This document shows, in pieces, positions 2,963 through 64,000 of a DNA stretch of 64,000 bases. Both the position numbers and the translations under genes were made by a program. The DNA is taken from the sequence record NC_055712.1; one strand, 5' to 3'. The DNA is from Escherichia phage phT4A. The stretch's first letter is position 1, and each line of letters starts with the position of its first letter. The notes under the pieces are model-generated. The model was given only the letters and a program-made list of their open reading frames with translations, ran no database searches and was not told where the DNA came from.

Positions 2963-3517
2963 GTGCTATTTTCATACTTCCCGCCTGTTGATTACAAAGG
3001 CACCCAGACAACTGATATTTTCCGAGACTATCGATTTTATTTTAATCGTGTGATTGGAAAATATAAAACCCGTAGTTACCAGATAACAGGCACACTACGA
3101 CCTGAACAACTTGCAGAATCATTATATGGAAACCAGCAATACTACTGGATCCTGTTGATGCTTAACTCTGTTTATGACCCTTTCTATGGTTGGATCTCCG
3201 ATCAGGAAGCCGCGTATCAGTGCGCTATACAGCGTTATTCTGAGGTTGGCGGTGAACAGGTTCTGTATCATGTAGATGAAAACAACAACAAGTATTATAA
3301 CCTTGTCGAAGACCCCAATAACCCTGGTCATTGGTATGACAAAGGTGACAAACCAATGCTGTATTTACAGTATCAAGGTGTATTAGCTCCTGTAGATATT
3401 TATGAAGATGCAGTGTTGCAAAATGAAGCAAAACGAACAATAAAAATCATTAGTCCGTCTGACATCCAGGCGTTTCTGAATGATTTTATTAAAGAAATGG
3501 AAAAGGCTAACTCATGA
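2963..3517 (+). CDS. gp53: gp53 baseplate wedge subunit
   Basis: 184 aa (T4 gp53 196 aa); immediately upstream of and overlapping gp5 start. Confidence 0.75.
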   Translation: MLFSYFPPVDYKGTQTTDIFRDYRFYFNRVIGKYKTRSYQITGTLRPEQLAESLYGNQQYYWILLMLNSVYDPFYGWISDQEAAYQCAIQRYSEVGGEQVLYHVDENNNKYYNLVEDPNNPGHWYDKGDKPMLYLQYQGVLAPVDIYEDAVLQNEAKRTIKIISPSDIQAFLNDFIKEMEKANS

Positions 3518-5283
3518 AATTAGGCGGAAATTTACACTCCCCTTTCTTTGATGGGGTGGTTGAAAACGTTGATGATCCGCGCGGGTTGGGCCGTGTTCAA
3601 GTCCGTGTATTTGGACAACACCCAGCCCAAAAACAAAAATCCGATGCAATCGGTGTTCCTGTTGAAGATTTACCCTGGATGATGCCTATTCAGGATATTA
3701 GAAGCGCTGCGATCTCTGGTGTGGGCTTCTCTCCAACTGGTATCACTCGCGGATCCTTTGTTGTTGGTTATTGGCGTGACAAATGGCACCAAGATGGTAT
3801 GATAATTGGTACTGTCGCTGGTGAATATGTCGAACAACCAGACACACAGAAAGGTTTTTGCGATCCTATGGGTGAATACCCTCGCTATGTTGGTAACGAT
3901 GTTAACTCCCTTGCTTTAGGTGGTTTGAAAGGCAAAGGATCATCAAGTGTCATCATTCGTGATTCAAACACAAGCATAGCAGTAAACCCAGACGATCGCC
4001 CACTGGATGAGATACCAGAAGATAACCGCCCTGATACGGGTGGATTTACGATCGAAAAGATGCTCAAGCAGGATGAGGGGATCCGTACACGATGGTATAC
4101 AGACAGTGAAGGATATCCGACAATCGGGATCGGGCATTTGCTTATCCGCGAAAAGACTCGCGACACTGCAAAAATTAACGCTGCGATCAGTAAAGCGGTA
4201 GGTCGAGAAGTAACAAACGGAACAATCACGGCAGAAGAGGTATCAACCTTATTTGCTCAAGATTTAGCCAAAGTAAGATCTGATATTCAGAGAACCGCTA
4301 ACGTCCGTGAAGTGTATGTGAACCTCAACCGTCCTCGTCAAATGGCGATCGAAAACATGTCGTTTCAAATGGGCGTCGGTGGTGTTGCTAAATTCACCAA
4401 TACCCTGAAAGCGATGAAAAATGAAGATTGGCAAGCGGCTTATAATGGTCTTCGAAATTCACTGTGGGCTAGTCAAACTCCAGGCCGTTCTTCTCGCGTG
4501 TCTAAAATAGTCCTCACGGGCAACCTTGAATCATATGGGGTACAAGTACCAGATCCGGAAGGGCGCTCTCTGAGTGCTGCTTACGCTGCGTATAACGGTG
4601 CTACATTGCTGGCGGCTAGTCCGGAAGATCCTTTTACTCCTGGTGATACCCGTGTGATGTTTGAAGAACCAGCATCATCTTATAATGCTGAATATCCGTA
4701 CAATATGGTTTTTGAATCGAGATCCGGACACATTCAGGAATTCGATGATACCCCAGGATACGAACGATATAACCGTGTTCACCCAGCAGGGAGTTACGAA
4801 GAAATTCGCCCGGATGGAACCCGCGTTGTTAAAATCGTAGGGGATGATTATCAAATTGTGATGCAGGGCCGGAAACTCAACGTTAAAGGCAACTTGCAGG
4901 TAGTTATTGAAGGCGACGCATTCATTTACAACATGGGTAACGTTCAACAAACGGTTGATGGTAACGTAACTGAGTTTGTTCGTGGCAACGTTCAACAAAC
5001 GGTTGAAGGTGAGTACGTTGGCCTGATTAAAGGCAATGCTGAACTAACTGTAAACAAAGATGCAACAGTTAACGTTGATCAGAATCTTACCGCAAATGTG
5101 AAACAGAATGCAACCGTGGCTGTAACAGAAGACGCAACGGTCACTGCAAAAAATGCGAAAATTGAGATTGAAGAAACGATGGATATCGGTGCTAAAGATA
5201 TCAATATCAAAGCAACGAATAACACGTTTATTGATTCTGGCGCATTAACAAAAATCACTGGCGGCACCGTCCAAGTGGGGTAA
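3514..5283 (+). CDS. gp5: gp5 baseplate hub subunit and tail lysozyme
   Basis: 589 aa; N-terminal OB region (GRVQVRVFGQHP), T4-lysozyme-like domain (GYPTIGIGHLL...), C-terminal beta-helix with VxGxxxxx octapeptide repeats. Confidence 0.9.
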   Translation: MKLGGNLHSPFFDGVVENVDDPRGLGRVQVRVFGQHPAQKQKSDAIGVPVEDLPWMMPIQDIRSAAISGVGFSPTGITRGSFVVGYWRDKWHQDGMIIGTVAGEYVEQPDTQKGFCDPMGEYPRYVGNDVNSLALGGLKGKGSSSVIIRDSNTSIAVNPDDRPLDEIPEDNRPDTGGFTIEKMLKQDEGIRTRWYTDSEGYPTIGIGHLLIREKTRDTAKINAAISKAVGREVTNGTITAEEVSTLFAQDLAKVRSDIQRTANVREVYVNLNRPRQMAIENMSFQMGVGGVAKFTNTLKAMKNEDWQAAYNGLRNSLWASQTPGRSSRVSKIVLTGNLESYGVQVPDPEGRSLSAAYAAYNGATLLAASPEDPFTPGDTRVMFEEPASSYNAEYPYNMVFESRSGHIQEFDDTPGYERYNRVHPAGSYEEIRPDGTRVVKIVGDDYQIVMQGRKLNVKGNLQVVIEGDAFIYNMGNVQQTVDGNVTEFVRGNVQQTVEGEYVGLIKGNAELTVNKDATVNVDQNLTANVKQNATVAVTEDATVTAKNAKIEIEETMDIGAKDINIKATNNTFIDSGALTKITGGTVQVG

Positions 5284-5287
5284 TTAA

Positions 5288-6910
5288 ATGATTATGGATT
5301 ATGAATCAATAATTGATGGAATTATGCAAAATTATCANNNNNNNNNNNNNNNNNNNNNNNNNNNNNNNNNNNNNNNNNNNNNNNNNNNNNNNNNNNNNNN
5401 NNNNNNNNNNNNNNNNNNNNNNNNNNNNNNNNNNNNNTGCAAATATACGGGTATGCAGGTTAACACCAACGCAGATACAAGCATTCCTCCTGTTCCTCCT
5501 GCAATGCCTTCCACTTATGGGGCATTACCGAGTGAATTAATCCGTGCTGATATTTCGTGCATTCCGGCAACTGTTGGTTTCGCATATACAAATATCAGTG
5601 ATGCTATGTTACAGGCATGGAACGAAACCCGTAATACGTTCAAGCTACAGTTTAACATGTTAACGGGTGCTGTACAGAATGGATTCGGGATCGCGACGAT
5701 GTTTGATGGTTTATCCGTATCGATGGAAGAAGTAATGGCGGGGGCGCTCGCATTGTCACAGCAAGCATGGCAAACTGCTATGAAAGTTTTCAGACAAGTG
5801 ATTAGCGCTGCATTTAACATTATCGGTGGTGCATGGGGATTGATTAATCAGTTCTTGCCTCAAGTAACCATCTTAGGTGTTGCGATCAACATTTACGATC
5901 TGGTGTTTGGTGATAATTCTGTTCAGACTTTGAAAGATGCGTTTAATGCAATCATCAAATCCGGACAACAAACATATGAAACCGTCATAAACGCAATATA
6001 CGGGGCCATAGGAAGCGCATACAATTACTCTGTGGAATATGTCAAAGCTGGCGCTCGCGACCTTGTGGATGCGTGTAGCGCGTTATTTGATTGGTGTTTA
6101 ACGATGTTCCAAAACGGTTGCGTTGCATTAATCGACTTATACGGTCGGATCATGCAAACATGGGCTATCCCTCCGGAAGTCCCAAACCCGTTATGGTCTG
6201 CGGTGCTGGCTATCCGTAACATCATGATGCAAATCAAACCACTTGATATAATTCTGGGCGGTAACTTCCCTGGATTCACTGCAATGGATTTGTATCAACA
6301 AGCACAGGAAAAAGTCAAGGCTTTTGTTGATGAGTCATACGAACAGATCCGAGGGCTTTATGAACAGGGGCAGGAACTTTACAAAACGTTAAAAAATCAG
6401 ATTTTCGAACGTGATACAATTCAGAGAAAATTCAACCAGTACTTAAACTGGATGTGGGGCGCTGTAACAGACGAAGCAACAGCGGCTTATCAATCTGCAT
6501 TGGATGCTGCAAACGCTGCTGTAGCTGCAACACAGGCCGCGTATGACGCTATACAGGAACAGATTGGATCTCTACAAGATGCAATGAAAGATACATACAG
6601 CATGGCGATGGAAGAATTAAAGAAATTGCCTTTGATGAGTACAATAAACGAGTTTTTAGGCTTCTGTGGTGTCGCATTTGACGATCTTCTCAAGTCATAT
6701 GAAAATGCGATTACTGGTGCTCAGTCTCTGTACAAAAATTTCATTGATAGTTCTCGCTCGTTTAAAGATCACTGCAAAGTAATCTATAACCAAATTTGTA
6801 CGTTGGCGTTGAGTAAAGTCACACAATATGTGAATAAATTGCTGTCTCTCATAGGATTAGCAATCAACTTTGGTTCGATTAGTGTATGTGTTCCAGTACT
6901 GAAATACTAA
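5288..6910 (+). CDS. hypothetical large helical protein with hydrophobic segments (ORF crosses 100-N gap; 5' part uncertain)
   Basis: Post-gap ORF 5438-6910 (~490 aa) is alpha-helical in composition with long hydrophobic stretches (e.g. ISAAFNIIGGAWGLINQFLPQVTILGVAINIY; C-terminal LLSLIGLAINFGSISVCVPVL) and an Ala/Gln-rich coiled-coil-like segment; no T4 counterpart recognised at this position. Confidence 0.4.
   Translation: MIMDYESIIDGIMQNYXXXXXXXXXXXXXXXXXXXXXXXXXXXXXXXXXXCKYTGMQVNTNADTSIPPVPPAMPSTYGALPSELIRADISCIPATVGFAYTNISDAMLQAWNETRNTFKLQFNMLTGAVQNGFGIATMFDGLSVSMEEVMAGALALSQQAWQTAMKVFRQVISAAFNIIGGAWGLINQFLPQVTILGVAINIYDLVFGDNSVQTLKDAFNAIIKSGQQTYETVINAIYGAIGSAYNYSVEYVKAGARDLVDACSALFDWCLTMFQNGCVALIDLYGRIMQTWAIPPEVPNPLWSAVLAIRNIMMQIKPLDIILGGNFPGFTAMDLYQQAQEKVKAFVDESYEQIRGLYEQGQELYKTLKNQIFERDTIQRKFNQYLNWMWGAVTDEATAAYQSALDAANAAVAATQAAYDAIQEQIGSLQDAMKDTYSMAMEELKKLPLMSTINEFLGFCGVAFDDLLKSYENAITGAQSLYKNFIDSSRSFKDHCKVIYNQICTLALSKVTQYVNKLLSLIGLAINFGSISVCVPVLKY
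5338..5437. other. assembly gap (100 N)
   Basis: Run of N. Confidence 0.95.
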
Positions 6911-6941: not shown

Positions 6942-8867
6942 ATGGCTACTGCTAAGACTAAGACTGTCAAAAAACAGATTAACCAAATCCCCGATATTTT
7001 TATCGGGGGTACTTTCGAAGAAATTAAAACAGATCTGATTGATTGGCTGGGTGGACAAGAAGAGTTTAAGGATTACGATTTTTCCGGCTCGCGAATGAAC
7101 GTACTGATCGACCTTCTGTCGTATGCTACTCTTTATATTCAGCAGATGGGTAACACGGCTCTATTTGAATCGTTTATTCGCACGGCTGCATTGCGTAGTT
7201 CTGTTGTACAGTCTGCTCAAGATCTGGGATATATGCCAGATTCTCGCACGGCTGCAAGCACAGCAGTAATGATTACGGCTGCTAACCCACTGACCCCAAC
7301 ATCGATCCGTATCCCGCGCGGTACAAAATTCATCGGTACTGTAAAGAATACAGACAGTTATTCTTTTGTTGTATCAGATGACGTTGTTATCGTTCGTGAT
7401 AGTAATAACAACTATACATCAATGCTGAACCTGGTGCAAGGCCGTTTAGTTCGTACTGAACTAATTTATGACGGTTCGAGTATCCTGATCCGAGATCCAA
7501 ACATTGACCGTAGTCAGGTACGTTTAACTGTAAACGGCGCACAATGGGAAGACTGGACAAACGAAAGCATTGTAAACGCAACAGGCGCAAGCACGATTTA
7601 CTACATGCGTGAAACTGTTGATGGACATACCGAAGTTTATTTCGGTGAAGGTGAAGCAAGTCAACAAGTGGCGGGTGGTGCATTAACCGCTGAATATATC
7701 GGGGGCTTGAAACCTGCTAATGGATCGACTATCGTTATTGAATACCTGTCAACCGATGGGGAAGCGGCTAACGGTGCAAAAGATTTTATCTATGTCGATA
7801 CATTAACCAATATTAGCATCACTAACATCGAAGAAAACCCGACTAAATCCCCTGATTATGTCGGTGCTGATGGTGGTGGTGATCCAGAAGATATCGAGCG
7901 TATTCGAGAACTGGCCCCTGTTATGCGTGAAACACAACGCCGTTGTGTAACTGCATCGGATTATGAATCTTTCCTGTCTCACAGATTTGGTTCTATCATC
8001 CAGGCGGTACAGTGCTTTACTGATAACGAAAAACCCGGTTATGCTTTCATTTCTGTTAAACCAAAGTCAGGTTTGCGCCTAACATCGGTACAGAAAGAAG
8101 ATATGCAAACGTATCTTTCGAAATATAACCTCGCGACGATCACCCCGTCGATTATGGATCCTAACTATCTGTATATTGTGCAATCTGTAAAAGTAACGTA
8201 TGATATCAGTAAGTTGACGGAATCAGAGGAATGGTTACGCGGTCAGGTTATTTCGTCGATCGACTCTTACTATACTGACAACGTTGAAATTTTCAACAAA
8301 TCTTTCAGTGTATCTAAGATGTTGACTTATGTCGATCAGTCTGATACCTCTATTATCGGTTCGGAAGCAGATATTAAATTGCTCCGTGAAATTGACAACT
8401 ATTACAGCGCCCCTATGTCTGGGATCCATTTCTTGAACCAGGTGGAATCTAAATCAATCATTTCCAGTACATTCAAGTTCACCAACGGAGAAGACGAAAG
8501 TTATGATGTTCGTTATGCTTCTACGGAAATGGATCAGGATGGTAACGCAAAAATTGTAATAGGCCCGTTCAAGGATGGGGATATTTCGATTGCTGCTTAT
8601 ACAGGCGATGACTTTGAAAAATTAACAGATGCAGGAACCCGTAATAAATATTACGAAGTTGGATCGGTTTCTCATTACACCGATTTCATTATCTTTGACC
8701 TGGGCGTTCTGAACGTATCCGCCGATAGTTTCAGCGCTGCTTATATCGAGCTAACCGCAAAGCCTCTCGAAGAAACCATTTTTACTCGCGATGGATCGTT
8801 GATCGTGTTTGAAAATGACCTGCGTCCTCAATACACCACATTGACTATGAATCCTATCAGTCAATAA
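6942..8867 (+). CDS. gp6: gp6 baseplate wedge subunit
   Basis: 641 aa; clear similarity to T4 gp6 (IPDIFIGGTFEEIK..., VGADGGGDPEDIERIRELAP, C-terminal DGSLIVFENDLRPQY). Confidence 0.9.
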   Translation: MATAKTKTVKKQINQIPDIFIGGTFEEIKTDLIDWLGGQEEFKDYDFSGSRMNVLIDLLSYATLYIQQMGNTALFESFIRTAALRSSVVQSAQDLGYMPDSRTAASTAVMITAANPLTPTSIRIPRGTKFIGTVKNTDSYSFVVSDDVVIVRDSNNNYTSMLNLVQGRLVRTELIYDGSSILIRDPNIDRSQVRLTVNGAQWEDWTNESIVNATGASTIYYMRETVDGHTEVYFGEGEASQQVAGGALTAEYIGGLKPANGSTIVIEYLSTDGEAANGAKDFIYVDTLTNISITNIEENPTKSPDYVGADGGGDPEDIERIRELAPVMRETQRRCVTASDYESFLSHRFGSIIQAVQCFTDNEKPGYAFISVKPKSGLRLTSVQKEDMQTYLSKYNLATITPSIMDPNYLYIVQSVKVTYDISKLTESEEWLRGQVISSIDSYYTDNVEIFNKSFSVSKMLTYVDQSDTSIIGSEADIKLLREIDNYYSAPMSGIHFLNQVESKSIISSTFKFTNGEDESYDVRYASTEMDQDGNAKIVIGPFKDGDISIAAYTGDDFEKLTDAGTRNKYYEVGSVSHYTDFIIFDLGVLNVSADSFSAAYIELTAKPLEETIFTRDGSLIVFENDLRPQYTTLTMNPISQ

Positions 8868-8872
8868 TCGTT

Positions 8873-8905
8873 AACCCCTGTCTTCGGATAGGGGTTTTTC
8901 TTTTT
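8873..8905 (+). terminator. rho-independent terminator after gp6
   Basis: Hairpin CCCCTgtcttcggatAGGGG followed by TTTTTCTTTTT. Confidence 0.55.
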
Positions 8906-8912
8906 ATAAATA
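8905..8912 (+). promoter_or_regulatory. T4-type late promoter TATAAATA
   Basis: Exact TATAAATA about 36 nt upstream of gp7 ATG. Confidence 0.5.
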
Positions 8913-51452: not shown

Positions 51453-51711
51453 AAGTAGAAAAANNNNNNNNNNNNNNNNNNNNNNNNNNNNNNNNNNNNN
51501 NNNNNNNNNNNNNNNNNNNNNNNNNNNNNNNNNNNNNNNNNNNNNNNNNNNNNNNNNNNNNNNAAAACGTAGGTTATGGACAGGATATACCCTGGAGGCT
51601 TTACAGGCCGACCCAGAACGTTCTAAGCTACTTCCTTACATTGATGTTCTGATTGATGGTAAGTATGAAAAAGATTTGCCAACAGAAAAAGCCGTTTCGC
51701 GGTTCAGATAA
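51449..51711 (+). CDS. nrdG: NrdG anaerobic ribonucleotide reductase activase (fragmented by assembly gap)
   Basis: ATG 51449 overlaps gp49 stop; post-gap frame encodes LWTGYTLEALQADPERSKLLPYIDVLIDGKYEKDLPTEKAVSRFR, matching the NrdG C-terminus; the radical-SAM CxxxCxxC region is missing in the gap. Confidence 0.55.
51464..51563. other. assembly gap (100 N)
   Basis: Run of N inside nrdG. Confidence 0.95.
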
Positions 51712-58843: not shown

Positions 58844-58943
58844 NNNNNNNNNNNNNNNNNNNNNNNNNNNNNNNNNNNNNNNNNNNNNNNNNNNNNNNNN
58901 NNNNNNNNNNNNNNNNNNNNNNNNNNNNNNNNNNNNNNNNNNN
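58844..58943. other. assembly gap (100 N)
   Basis: Run of N; probably hides gp35 3' end, a gp36-like gene and the first codons of the next fibre gene. Confidence 0.9.
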
Positions 58944-63339: not shown

Positions 63340-64000
63340 ATGGCTNNNNNNNNNNNNNNNNNNNNNNNNNNNNNNNNNNNNNNNNNNNNNNNNNNNNNNN
63401 NNNNNNNNNNNNNNNNNNNNNNNNNNNNNNNNNNNNNNNNNNNNNGGCTGATTTAGCAAAAATTCAATTCCTACGTAGCACAGTTACGGGGAAAACACCT
63501 ACTACAAGTCAGCTTGCAGATGGTGAACTGGCGATCAACATGGCTGATTATGCCATTTACACGAAAAATGGTTCTTCGATCGTTCAGTTAGCGGGTAAAG
63601 GTATCCCAGAAACAAATACCAAAAAATTAACAGTTGATGGGCCTAGTGCTCTTAATGATACCGTTACCGTAGCGGAAGGTAAAACTATTACTTTCACCAA
63701 CGAGGATTTAAGTGGTGGAATAACTCGTCATATCGTTGGCAAATGCGCCACTAATGATGGTTGGTACATCGGTTCCGGTGGTACAAGCAACAATGGTATT
63801 CTTGAAATCGGTACTATTGATGACGGCGTTGAAACCATCCAGATCGTACAGCGCGGCGCAGGCAACGTTGAAGCCAGAAAGTTAGTCTTGCTTGATGGTT
63901 CGGGTAATACGAATCTTCCTGGTGATTTAAGATTAACCACCAATAAAGCTGTTAAAATTTCGAATGGAAGCACTCTTACACTAGAAATGGGCGTAGGTGC
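63340..64000 (+). CDS. second gp37-like distal tail fibre gene (partial; interrupted by 100-N run; open to window end)
   Basis: ATGGCT before the gap, then GGCTGATTTAGCAAAAATTCAATTCCTACGTAGC = (M)ADLAKIQFLRS..., same N-terminal module as 58944 copy, then a divergent sequence. Confidence 0.7.
63346..63445. other. assembly gap (100 N), possibly spurious
   Basis: Flanks share GGCT; joining them gives ATG GCT GAT TTA ... in frame with the T4 gp37 N-terminus. Confidence 0.85.
63446..63717 (+). repeat. fibre 5' module, copy 2
   Basis: See 58944-59215. Confidence 0.85.

Follow-up and report, generated by a model that had tools for sequence, protein, structure and literature searches.

The window analysed here is a 64,000-nucleotide (nt) stretch of the genome of Escherichia phage phT4A (NC_055712.1), and our subject is the gene that lies in it between gp5, which encodes the spike and tail lysozyme, and gp6, which encodes a baseplate wedge protein. 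From here on we call this gene X and its product, a putative spike-tip protein, the 688-aa protein (aa, amino acids), after its length in complete relatives. The ATG of X at 5288 sits 4 nt past the gp5 stop codon, and the frame runs on the plus strand to 6910, with gp6 beginning at 6942; a long open reading frame (ORF) directly after gp5 had already been noticed in a sequence-only reading of the window. That reading was also correct in stating that the corresponding interval of T4 holds only small ORFs, including that of the PAAR-like gp5.4: between genes 5 and 6 of T4 lie 5.1, segC, 5.3 and 5.4. The genes and features of the phT4A locus are as follows.

2963..3517, plus strand: gp53, baseplate wedge gene, first of the gp53-gp5-X-gp6 run (ORF list, and the VAC13 and KP15 annotation at the same position)
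3514..5283, plus strand: gp5, spike and tail lysozyme, 589 aa (Pfam Gp5_OB at 1e-58, Phage_lysozyme and Gp5_C)
5288..5337, plus strand: start of X, codons 1-16 and 2 nt, MIMDYESIIDGIMQNY; the 688-aa ORF begins identically in VAC13 and KP15
5338..5437, no strand: 100-N scaffold gap placeholder within X (alignment with VAC13)
5438..6910, plus strand: remainder of X, residues 199-688 and the stop codon (translation; stop at 6908-6910)
6942..8867, plus strand: gp6, baseplate wedge gene, directly 3' of X (ORF list; VAC13 and KP15 annotations)

The assembly gap within X

Four N-runs in the window are identical in size, each of 100 letters (5338-5437, 51464-51563, 58844-58943 and 63346-63445), and are therefore scaffold placeholders of arbitrary length in a draft assembly. 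The listed ORF reads through the first of them, so that its 540 aa are not the true length of the gene. Closure of the gap for phT4A rests on comparison with complete relatives. Positions 5438-6910 matched 156 Slopekvirus and related genomes, the best listed of these at 99.6-99.9% nucleotide identity. In VAC13 (MZ322895), Roth22 and KP15 (GU295964), X is a single unbroken 2067-nt ORF between gp5 and gp6 that encodes 688 aa. When phT4A is aligned with VAC13, both flanks of the gap match exactly, and the 100-N run at 5338-5437 corresponds to 544 nt. The frame seems continuous across the run because 100 and 544 are both 1 modulo 3, which is a coincidence. Judged by these relatives, the gap conceals residues 17-198 of the same 688-aa protein, a predicted α/β N-terminal region that includes an invariant Cys20. 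The sequence-only reading had described an ORF of about 500 aa; the gene it saw is real and the length is not. It had also allowed for several small genes in the gap, and the comparison with VAC13 and KP15 gives one 2067-nt ORF and no small genes.

A further suggestion of that reading, that a PAAR gene or a fusion to one might be concealed in the gap, is ruled out by the complete relatives, in which the hidden segment is part of this same protein, together with hidden Markov model (HMM) scans. No PAAR domain was found in the full 688-aa protein by Pfam or NCBIfam, nor by Pfam in its first 208 residues or in 52 homologs, and in the positive control T4 gp5.4 matched NF033420, a PAAR model for type VI secretion systems (T6SS), at 1.8e-11. 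The same scans gave nothing significant of any other kind in the full protein (Pfam and NCBIfam) and nothing at all in its first 208 residues (Pfam). Profile comparison agrees, in that hhalign of T4 gp5.4 against the family profile was negative, with a probability of 0.15% and eight columns aligned.

Two side observations concern the same stretch. In BFVD, A0A193GZA2 (listed for Escherichia phage phT4A as 'Uncharacterized protein') has 485 aa and is 99% identical to this ORF; its length is exactly that of the ORF from the first Met after the N-run (5453-6910), and this public entry may be an N-terminally truncated product of the assembly gap. The core of the T4 late promoter, TATAAATA, occurs nine times in the window against 4.1 expected, with eight of the nine on the plus strand and one copy at 8905-8912, just 5' of gp7 (8948). 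None was found between gp53 and gp6, which suggests that gp53, gp5, X and gp6 are probably co-transcribed.

Family, synteny and the link to gp5.4

A protein search with the 688-aa protein returned 62 homologs at 32-99% identity, all of them 664-764 aa long except for one 580-aa entry, and in every case the gene lies immediately behind gp5. An alignment of 52 of these homologs contains 44 invariant columns distributed across the full length, and this degree of conservation marks X as a genuine gene, far beyond chance. Among the PHROG families, the protein matches phrog_5296 ('unknown function') at positions 1-685 of 685 (E=0). Searches with tblastn place X in 215 phage records, which include Slopekvirus, RB43, RB16 and Lw1, and phages of Citrobacter, Cronobacter, Enterobacter, Yersinia, Pantoea and Pectobacterium. 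Carriers at about 43% identity are Dhakavirus WG01, Salmonella phage SG1, Bragavirus Pm5461 (with Proteus phage PM2) and Providencia phage PSTCR6. In RB43 (HE858210.2) the ortholog is 78.3% identical over 100% of the query by tblastn.

By sequence and position, the 688-aa protein is the Slopekvirus ortholog of RB43 orf205w and the same protein as gp203 of the Slopekvirus Helios. Both have been described, so the label 'unrecognised' given to it in the sequence-only reading does not hold (Mattenberger et al., bioRxiv 10.1101/2025.08.28.672839; PMC13611949). According to the former study, RB43, RB16 and Lw1 have no gene 5.4 ortholog, and orf205w, of about 690 residues with residues 1-220 α/β and the rest helical, fills the locus that 5.1-5.4 occupy in T4 (bioRxiv 10.1101/2025.08.28.672839). 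The likeness to these two proteins covers the length of about 690 aa, the position after gp5, the α/β N-terminus followed by a helical remainder, and the positions of the core helices. Nothing substantive separates them, other than that the window copy is interrupted by the gap and shows residues 1-16 and 199-688. The window thus adds no new entity or kind of element to a protein that is already described, and still as a putative spike tip.

This is a narrow family: among 1.84 billion representative proteins a profile search produced only 21 matches, namely eight full-length family clusters, five fragments of family members and eight weak helical matches; the four of the last group that have a defining tail-protein domain are tape-measure proteins, reached via apolipoprotein-like helical repeats. 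No relative of the 688-aa protein from a bacterial T6SS or toxin locus was found among these 1.84 billion proteins. Pfam searches with the 52 homologs returned only sporadic coiled-coil families.

The gene order gp53-gp5-X-gp6, with 0-4 nt between gp5 and X, is shared by Slopekvirus, Dhakavirus (WG01) and Bragavirus (Pm5461). In P0063 (743 aa), the metagenomic member that has diverged furthest, X again starts 4 nt after a gp5-like gene. The gp5-like protein encoded there has 389 aa (L011:219-1388), and Gp5_OB is the sole Pfam family on the record; it may be a spike without a lysozyme domain, paired with a large tip protein.

Gene X and gene 5.4 do not occur together. By tblastn, T4 gp5.4 is found in 1471 phage records, down to 25-30% identity, yet the window and the complete genome of KP15 contain no match to it or to T4 5.1 or 5.3 (best E for gp5.4 about 1). 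A chimeric query, made of the large protein of WG01 and T4 gp5.4, matched 1573 records at just 1576 places. The large protein is carried by 213 of these records, and the best 60 of the 213 all have a single match place, hence no gp5.4 elsewhere. The large tip protein and gp5.4 are effectively mutually exclusive across phage genomes, which suggests that they have the same role.

The end of the gp5 upstream of X differs as well. Overall, gp5 of the window is about 50% identical to T4 gp5, whereas over the last 65 alignment columns the identity falls to 28%. Its C-terminus (...LTKITGGTVQVG) is common to other genomes with the large tip protein. WG01 is a member of the Tevenvirinae. Its gp5 is 66% identical to T4 gp5 in the N-terminal part and 60% in the mid β-helix, but only 22% in the last 65 columns, and those same columns are 42-49% identical to gp5 of Slopekvirus and Pm5461. 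Every gp5 compared that precedes the large protein ends in K(I/V)(T/S)GxxVQVG, whereas T4 gp5 ends in IDGSRIDIG. The gp5 sequences concerned lie at 5090-5283 of the window (the gp5 C-terminus), at L009:1712-3496 and at L010:1774-3501. That the extreme tip of gp5 co-varies with the type of tip gene is as expected for physical partners, and the pattern implies joint exchange, between lineages, of the gp5 tip and the tip gene that follows it, the two being inherited as a module. It is on the end of the gp5 β-helix (...LTKITGGTVQVG) that the tip protein is proposed to dock.

Predicted structure of the 688-aa protein

Prediction with AlphaFold2 from the 52-sequence alignment gave a confident, compact model, with a mean predicted local distance difference test score (pLDDT) of 87.8 and a predicted template modelling score (pTM) of 0.79, for which no structural relative was found in the PDB or in BFVD. 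The model has a mixed α/β region up to about residue 290 and long helices at residues 293-327, 403-440, 480-534, 543-580 and 636-668; the 490 codons visible after the gap (5438-6907) are predicted to be mainly helical. In a 2026 paper on Helios the gp5 trimer and gp203 are modelled together by AlphaFold3, and gp203 there has an intramolecular three-helix core (F287-I327, E398-W440 and K631-I670) and a distal loop (PMC13611949). Our independent model contains the same three core helices, at 293-327, 403-440 and 636-668 against the published 287-327, 398-440 and 631-670. The parts of the fold that are visible in the window are these.

5720..5824, plus strand: core helix 1, residues 293-327 (AlphaFold2; published counterpart in Helios gp203, F287-I327)
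5795..5896, plus strand: uncharged hydrophobic stretch, residues 318-351, 34 residues (hydropathy; in the AlphaFold2 model the last part of helix 1, then a short helix and, at 341-348, a β-hairpin)
6050..6163, plus strand: core helix 2, residues 403-440, then the invariant PPxVPNP motif (AlphaFold2; published core helix E398-W440)
6281..6583, plus strand: long Ala/Gln-rich antiparallel helical hairpin, residues 480-534 and 543-580 (AlphaFold2, composition)
6749..6847, plus strand: core helix 3, residues 636-668, ...LSKVTQWVNKLL (AlphaFold2; published core helix K631-I670)
6878..6904, plus strand: C-terminal β-strand with Cys682, residues 679-687 (AlphaFold2 strand, pLDDT about 88-92)

Conservation is uneven along this fold. 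Core helix 3 is the most conserved block (conservation 0.8), and in the PPxVPNP motif P444, N448 and P449 are invariant in the 52-homolog alignment. The Ala/Gln-rich hairpin is the least conserved region (0.35-0.5); residues 481-600 consist of 15% Ala and 11.7% Gln, and it is here that the PHROG, PDB and HMM matches are located. It is from this hairpin that the weak matches of tape-measure and coiled-coil type stem. Another match there was to the CW_7 repeat of the Cpl-7 lysozyme (5i8l_A, E=3e-8, residues 491-536); obtained with the single sequence, it disappeared when the family profile was used and is put down to Ala/Gln low complexity. Homology of the N-terminal region to T4 gp5.1 was likewise ruled out (hhalign probability 0.12%).

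Four cysteines stand out in the alignment. Cys20 and Cys199 are invariant. Cys239 (5558-5560), which lies in a predicted strand at 239-244, and Cys682 (6887-6889) are each present in 49 of the 52 homologs, and both are lost in the same three (P0018, P0056 and P0062). Because they are lost together, Cys239 and Cys682 probably share one structural site, either a disulfide or a metal site. The alignment suggests that two Cys pairs, as disulfides or metal ligands, link the N-terminal region to the C-terminal strand.

The segments around the three core helices (residues 285-360, 396-480 and 629-688, at window positions 5696-5923, 6029-6283 and 6728-6907) align with one another by hhalign, mutually in register and weakly (E 0.001, 0.003 and 0.11). 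The alignments are suggestive only; they hint that the chain arose by an ancient triplication within it, which could give a single chain pseudo-threefold symmetry, as a mimic of a trimeric coiled coil.

A putative spike tip and the alternatives

We consider it likely that in the T4-like phages that lack 5.1-5.4 this protein, which is not a PAAR protein and of which one copy would probably sit at the flat C-terminal end of the gp5 β-helix trimer, forms the distal tip of the cell-puncturing spike. The evidence obtained here consists of its orthology and synteny, its exclusivity with gp5.4, the co-variation with the gp5 tip and the confident compact fold; the literature contributes extra density at the RB43 spike tip and AlphaFold models of the complex. 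In the cryo-electron microscopy map of the RB43 baseplate, at 17.7 Å, the structure is T4-like apart from a larger body at the tip of the spike, and this body can accommodate an AlphaFold model of orf205w (bioRxiv 10.1101/2025.08.28.672839). Support for a location at the spike tip in the virion comes from the low-resolution RB43 map and the published models and, indirectly, from the co-variation of the gp5 C-terminus. The copy number, the gp5-binding surface and any activity other than a sharpening or stabilising one are our inferences. The sequence-only reading had judged that the protein is not a component of the baseplate wedge, and we agree, the best-supported role being a spike-mounted one.

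The sequence of events that we propose is as follows. X would be expressed late, with gp5, from the gp53-gp5-X-gp6 run, and would probably be translationally coupled to gp5. Its product of about 76 kDa would fold compactly into an α/β N-terminal region, a three-helix core and a protruding long helical hairpin, with the core helices parallel and intramolecular and so mimicking threefold symmetry. One copy would dock through a pseudo-threefold surface on the flat end of the gp5 β-helix. When the sheath contracts, the tip protein would be driven across the outer membrane ahead of the rest of the virion, and together with the gp5 spike it would next reach the periplasm, as data on P2 gpV suggest (bioRxiv 10.1101/2025.08.28.672839).

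T4 gp5.4, the PAAR-repeat tip (PDB 4KU0, as cited in the preprint), is likewise encoded between genes 5 and 6, and is likewise proposed as a monomer that caps the flat end of the trimeric gp5 β-helix. It differs in having 97 aa against 688 aa, in being a small β-cone where the fold predicted here is helical, with no similarity of PAAR HMM or profile between the two, and in its metal site of three His and one Cys, which seems to have no recognisable counterpart in the 688-aa family, where Cys20, Cys199, Cys239 and Cys682 are conserved. The tripod of phage P1 UpfB on the PAAR protein UpfC, to judge by its description in PMC13611949 (citing PMC12810830), is also α-helical, has a distal loop and extends the membrane-piercing tip of a contractile tail. 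On the same description, it consists of three helical copies on a true PAAR protein, as opposed to the proposed pseudo-threefold bundle of a single chain without PAAR. In the VgrG-PAAR-effector loci of the T6SS, with which the sequence-only reading drew a parallel, a spike gene is followed by the gene of a tip-borne protein, and there is a large extension past the minimal tip. The 688-aa protein has neither PAAR, nor a recognisable toxin domain, nor an immunity gene, nor bacterial homologs among the 1.84 billion representative proteins. The parallel would appear valid for position, as a tip on a spike, and not for an effector role.

Several points weigh against assignment as the spike tip. The RB43 map has a resolution of only 17.7 Å with sixfold symmetry (C6) imposed, and its authors term the assignment 'possible'; an attempt to co-produce the RB43 protein with a gp5 fragment failed (bioRxiv 10.1101/2025.08.28.672839). 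The function of gp203 has not been established experimentally according to the Helios study (PMC13611949). For phT4A itself the evidence is indirect. We found no detection of a family member by virion mass spectrometry; the virion data set of Morganella phage MP1 lists neither gp5 nor its downstream neighbours and is uninformative on the tip protein. A Jiaodavirus data set and the KP15/KP27 paper have no bearing on it, and a wider search yielded nothing of use. A mass of 76 kDa is odd for a 'sharpener'.

A variant of the spike-tip assignment, which we think rather improbable, is that the tip is a delivered, conformationally switchable protein with a unique fold that engages a component of the host envelope, or the membrane, once in the periplasm. 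The helical hairpin could open, for example, or hydrophobic elements located after the three core helices could become exposed. If this were so, a switchable tip would contribute to host specificity or to a DNA conduit, and the protein would be a phage counterpart of the 'evolved' PAAR and VgrG effectors, built without a PAAR domain. Exchange of the gp5 tip and X between Tevenvirinae and Slopekvirus-like lineages would then be that of an adaptive host-envelope module.

A rival reading is that the protein is membrane-active and not a passive tip: riding on the spike, it would unfold or refold its hydrophobic helices in the periplasm and insert into a host membrane, where it might help to form the DNA conduit or depolarise the cell, in the manner of ClyA-family α-pore-forming toxins or the translocators of type III secretion systems. 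In these proteins a helical bundle that is soluble conceals the membrane segments. The features from which the sequence-only reading took its membrane-inserting composition, namely a helical protein with hydrophobic stretches, a C-terminal hydrophobic tail and an Ala/Gln-rich segment, are indeed present in phT4A by hydropathy, AlphaFold2 and composition. In the Slopekvirus protein, residues 318-351 are uncharged with a Kyte-Doolittle maximum of 1.6, and include a small β-hairpin in the AlphaFold2 model, while the tail at residues 666-686 is hydrophobic with a 19-residue maximum of 1.91. Matches over the long helices include AhlC, YaxB, IpaB and MakA; the top sequence-profile match in the PDB is Hbl-B (E=0.017); and the gene position is that of PAAR-effector fusions.

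This hydrophobicity is not a property of the family, however. Across the homologs, the middle stretch has a median Kyte-Doolittle value of 1.36, only 21% are at or above the transmembrane-like threshold of 1.6, and the consensus includes Asp and Lys. No conserved hydrophobic segment of transmembrane grade was found across the 52 homologs on the Kyte-Doolittle scale, and both hydrophobic stretches of the Slopekvirus protein fall inside the compact AlphaFold2 fold. The tail contains Glu or Lys in several homologs, that of Proteus phage PM2 reading ...GLEIKFPELELCIPYVKYEE; it is predicted confidently as a β-strand, and the joint loss of Cys682 and Cys239 ties it to the strand at 239-244. For these reasons the tail is best seen as belonging to the predicted fold, and not as an anchor in the membrane. 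With no relatives in bacterial T6SS or toxin loci either, what now speaks for membrane activity is a set of helical similarities that look non-specific and a lineage-specific hydrophobicity, and we regard it as unlikely; the 688-aa protein is probably not a membrane-spanning effector. In large part the comparison points to a baseplate or spike protein that is conserved in this phage group and has no membrane segments, contrary to the sequence-only reading.

It is still less probable that X encodes a baseplate assembly factor or another late protein absent from the virion, such as a chaperone of gp5 or the spike, or that its product sits elsewhere on the baseplate. Such a role would suit a gene within a late baseplate run whose product we did not find reported by mass spectrometry and could not be co-produced with the gp5 fragment in the case of RB43. 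It would not account for the extra tip density of fitting size on RB43 particles, for co-variation that is restricted to the extreme C-terminus of gp5, or for the one-for-one replacement of a known virion tip protein across the family.

The remaining alternative comes from the databases, in which several GenBank records, those of the Roth phages and others, label the protein 'tail length tape measure'. A second tape-measure-like or tube-lumen protein would be in keeping with the near-constant length of the family, with weak PHROG matches to tape-measure families at residues 250-670 (best E=9e-9) and with profile matches to true tape-measure proteins of the representative library (PhageMin_Tail, TMP_3; E 1e-4 to 2e-7), and T4 gp29 and its kind (PF10145, TMP_3) share with the 688-aa protein long helices rich in Ala, Gln and Gly. 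We give it hardly any credence, since the matches are confined to apolipoprotein-like helical repeats outside the defining tape-measure domains (neither PF10145 nor TMP_3 is found in the 688-aa protein by Pfam), the predicted structure is compact and multi-domain (pTM 0.79) and not an extended rod, a separate gp29 ortholog exists in the canonical gp27-gp28-gp29-gp48-gp54 cluster, and both exclusivity with gp5.4 and co-variation with the gp5 tip indicate the exterior of the spike rather than the lumen.

That X could be the canonical T4-type tape measure is ruled out, because KP15_88, between gp28 and gp48, matches the gp29-type PHROGs. KP15_88 (L005:9681-11462, outside the window) is a gp29-type tape measure or baseplate hub protein that is annotated merely as 'hypothetical protein', and the label that X bears in Roth22, phi1_146054, vB_Rp_M26a, HK6 and vB_KpnM_KP1 is either 'tail length tape measure' or that of a 'baseplate hub structural protein'. 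The annotations of KP15_88 and X look as though they had been swapped or were missing, and the weak PHROG matches to tape-measure families probably explain the 'tail length tape measure' labels.

For the spike-tip assignment, the value of these analyses is that they sharpen the case, through exclusivity with gp5.4 and a co-variation of the gp5 tip that marks a jointly inherited module, and that they counter two misreadings, one being the GenBank 'tape measure' label and the other the view of the hydrophobic C-terminal tail as a membrane anchor. How contractile tails cross the envelope after the outer membrane has been pierced is an unsettled problem, and few parts of these machines are as conserved as their spike tips. 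If the assignment is right, a branch of the T4-like phages that includes therapeutic Klebsiella Slopekviruses has given up the PAAR tip of 97 residues in favour of a protein of 76 kDa that is unrelated to it and has a unique fold. This would be an unusual design for a spike tip, and the swap would amount to a natural experiment on what a tip must do.

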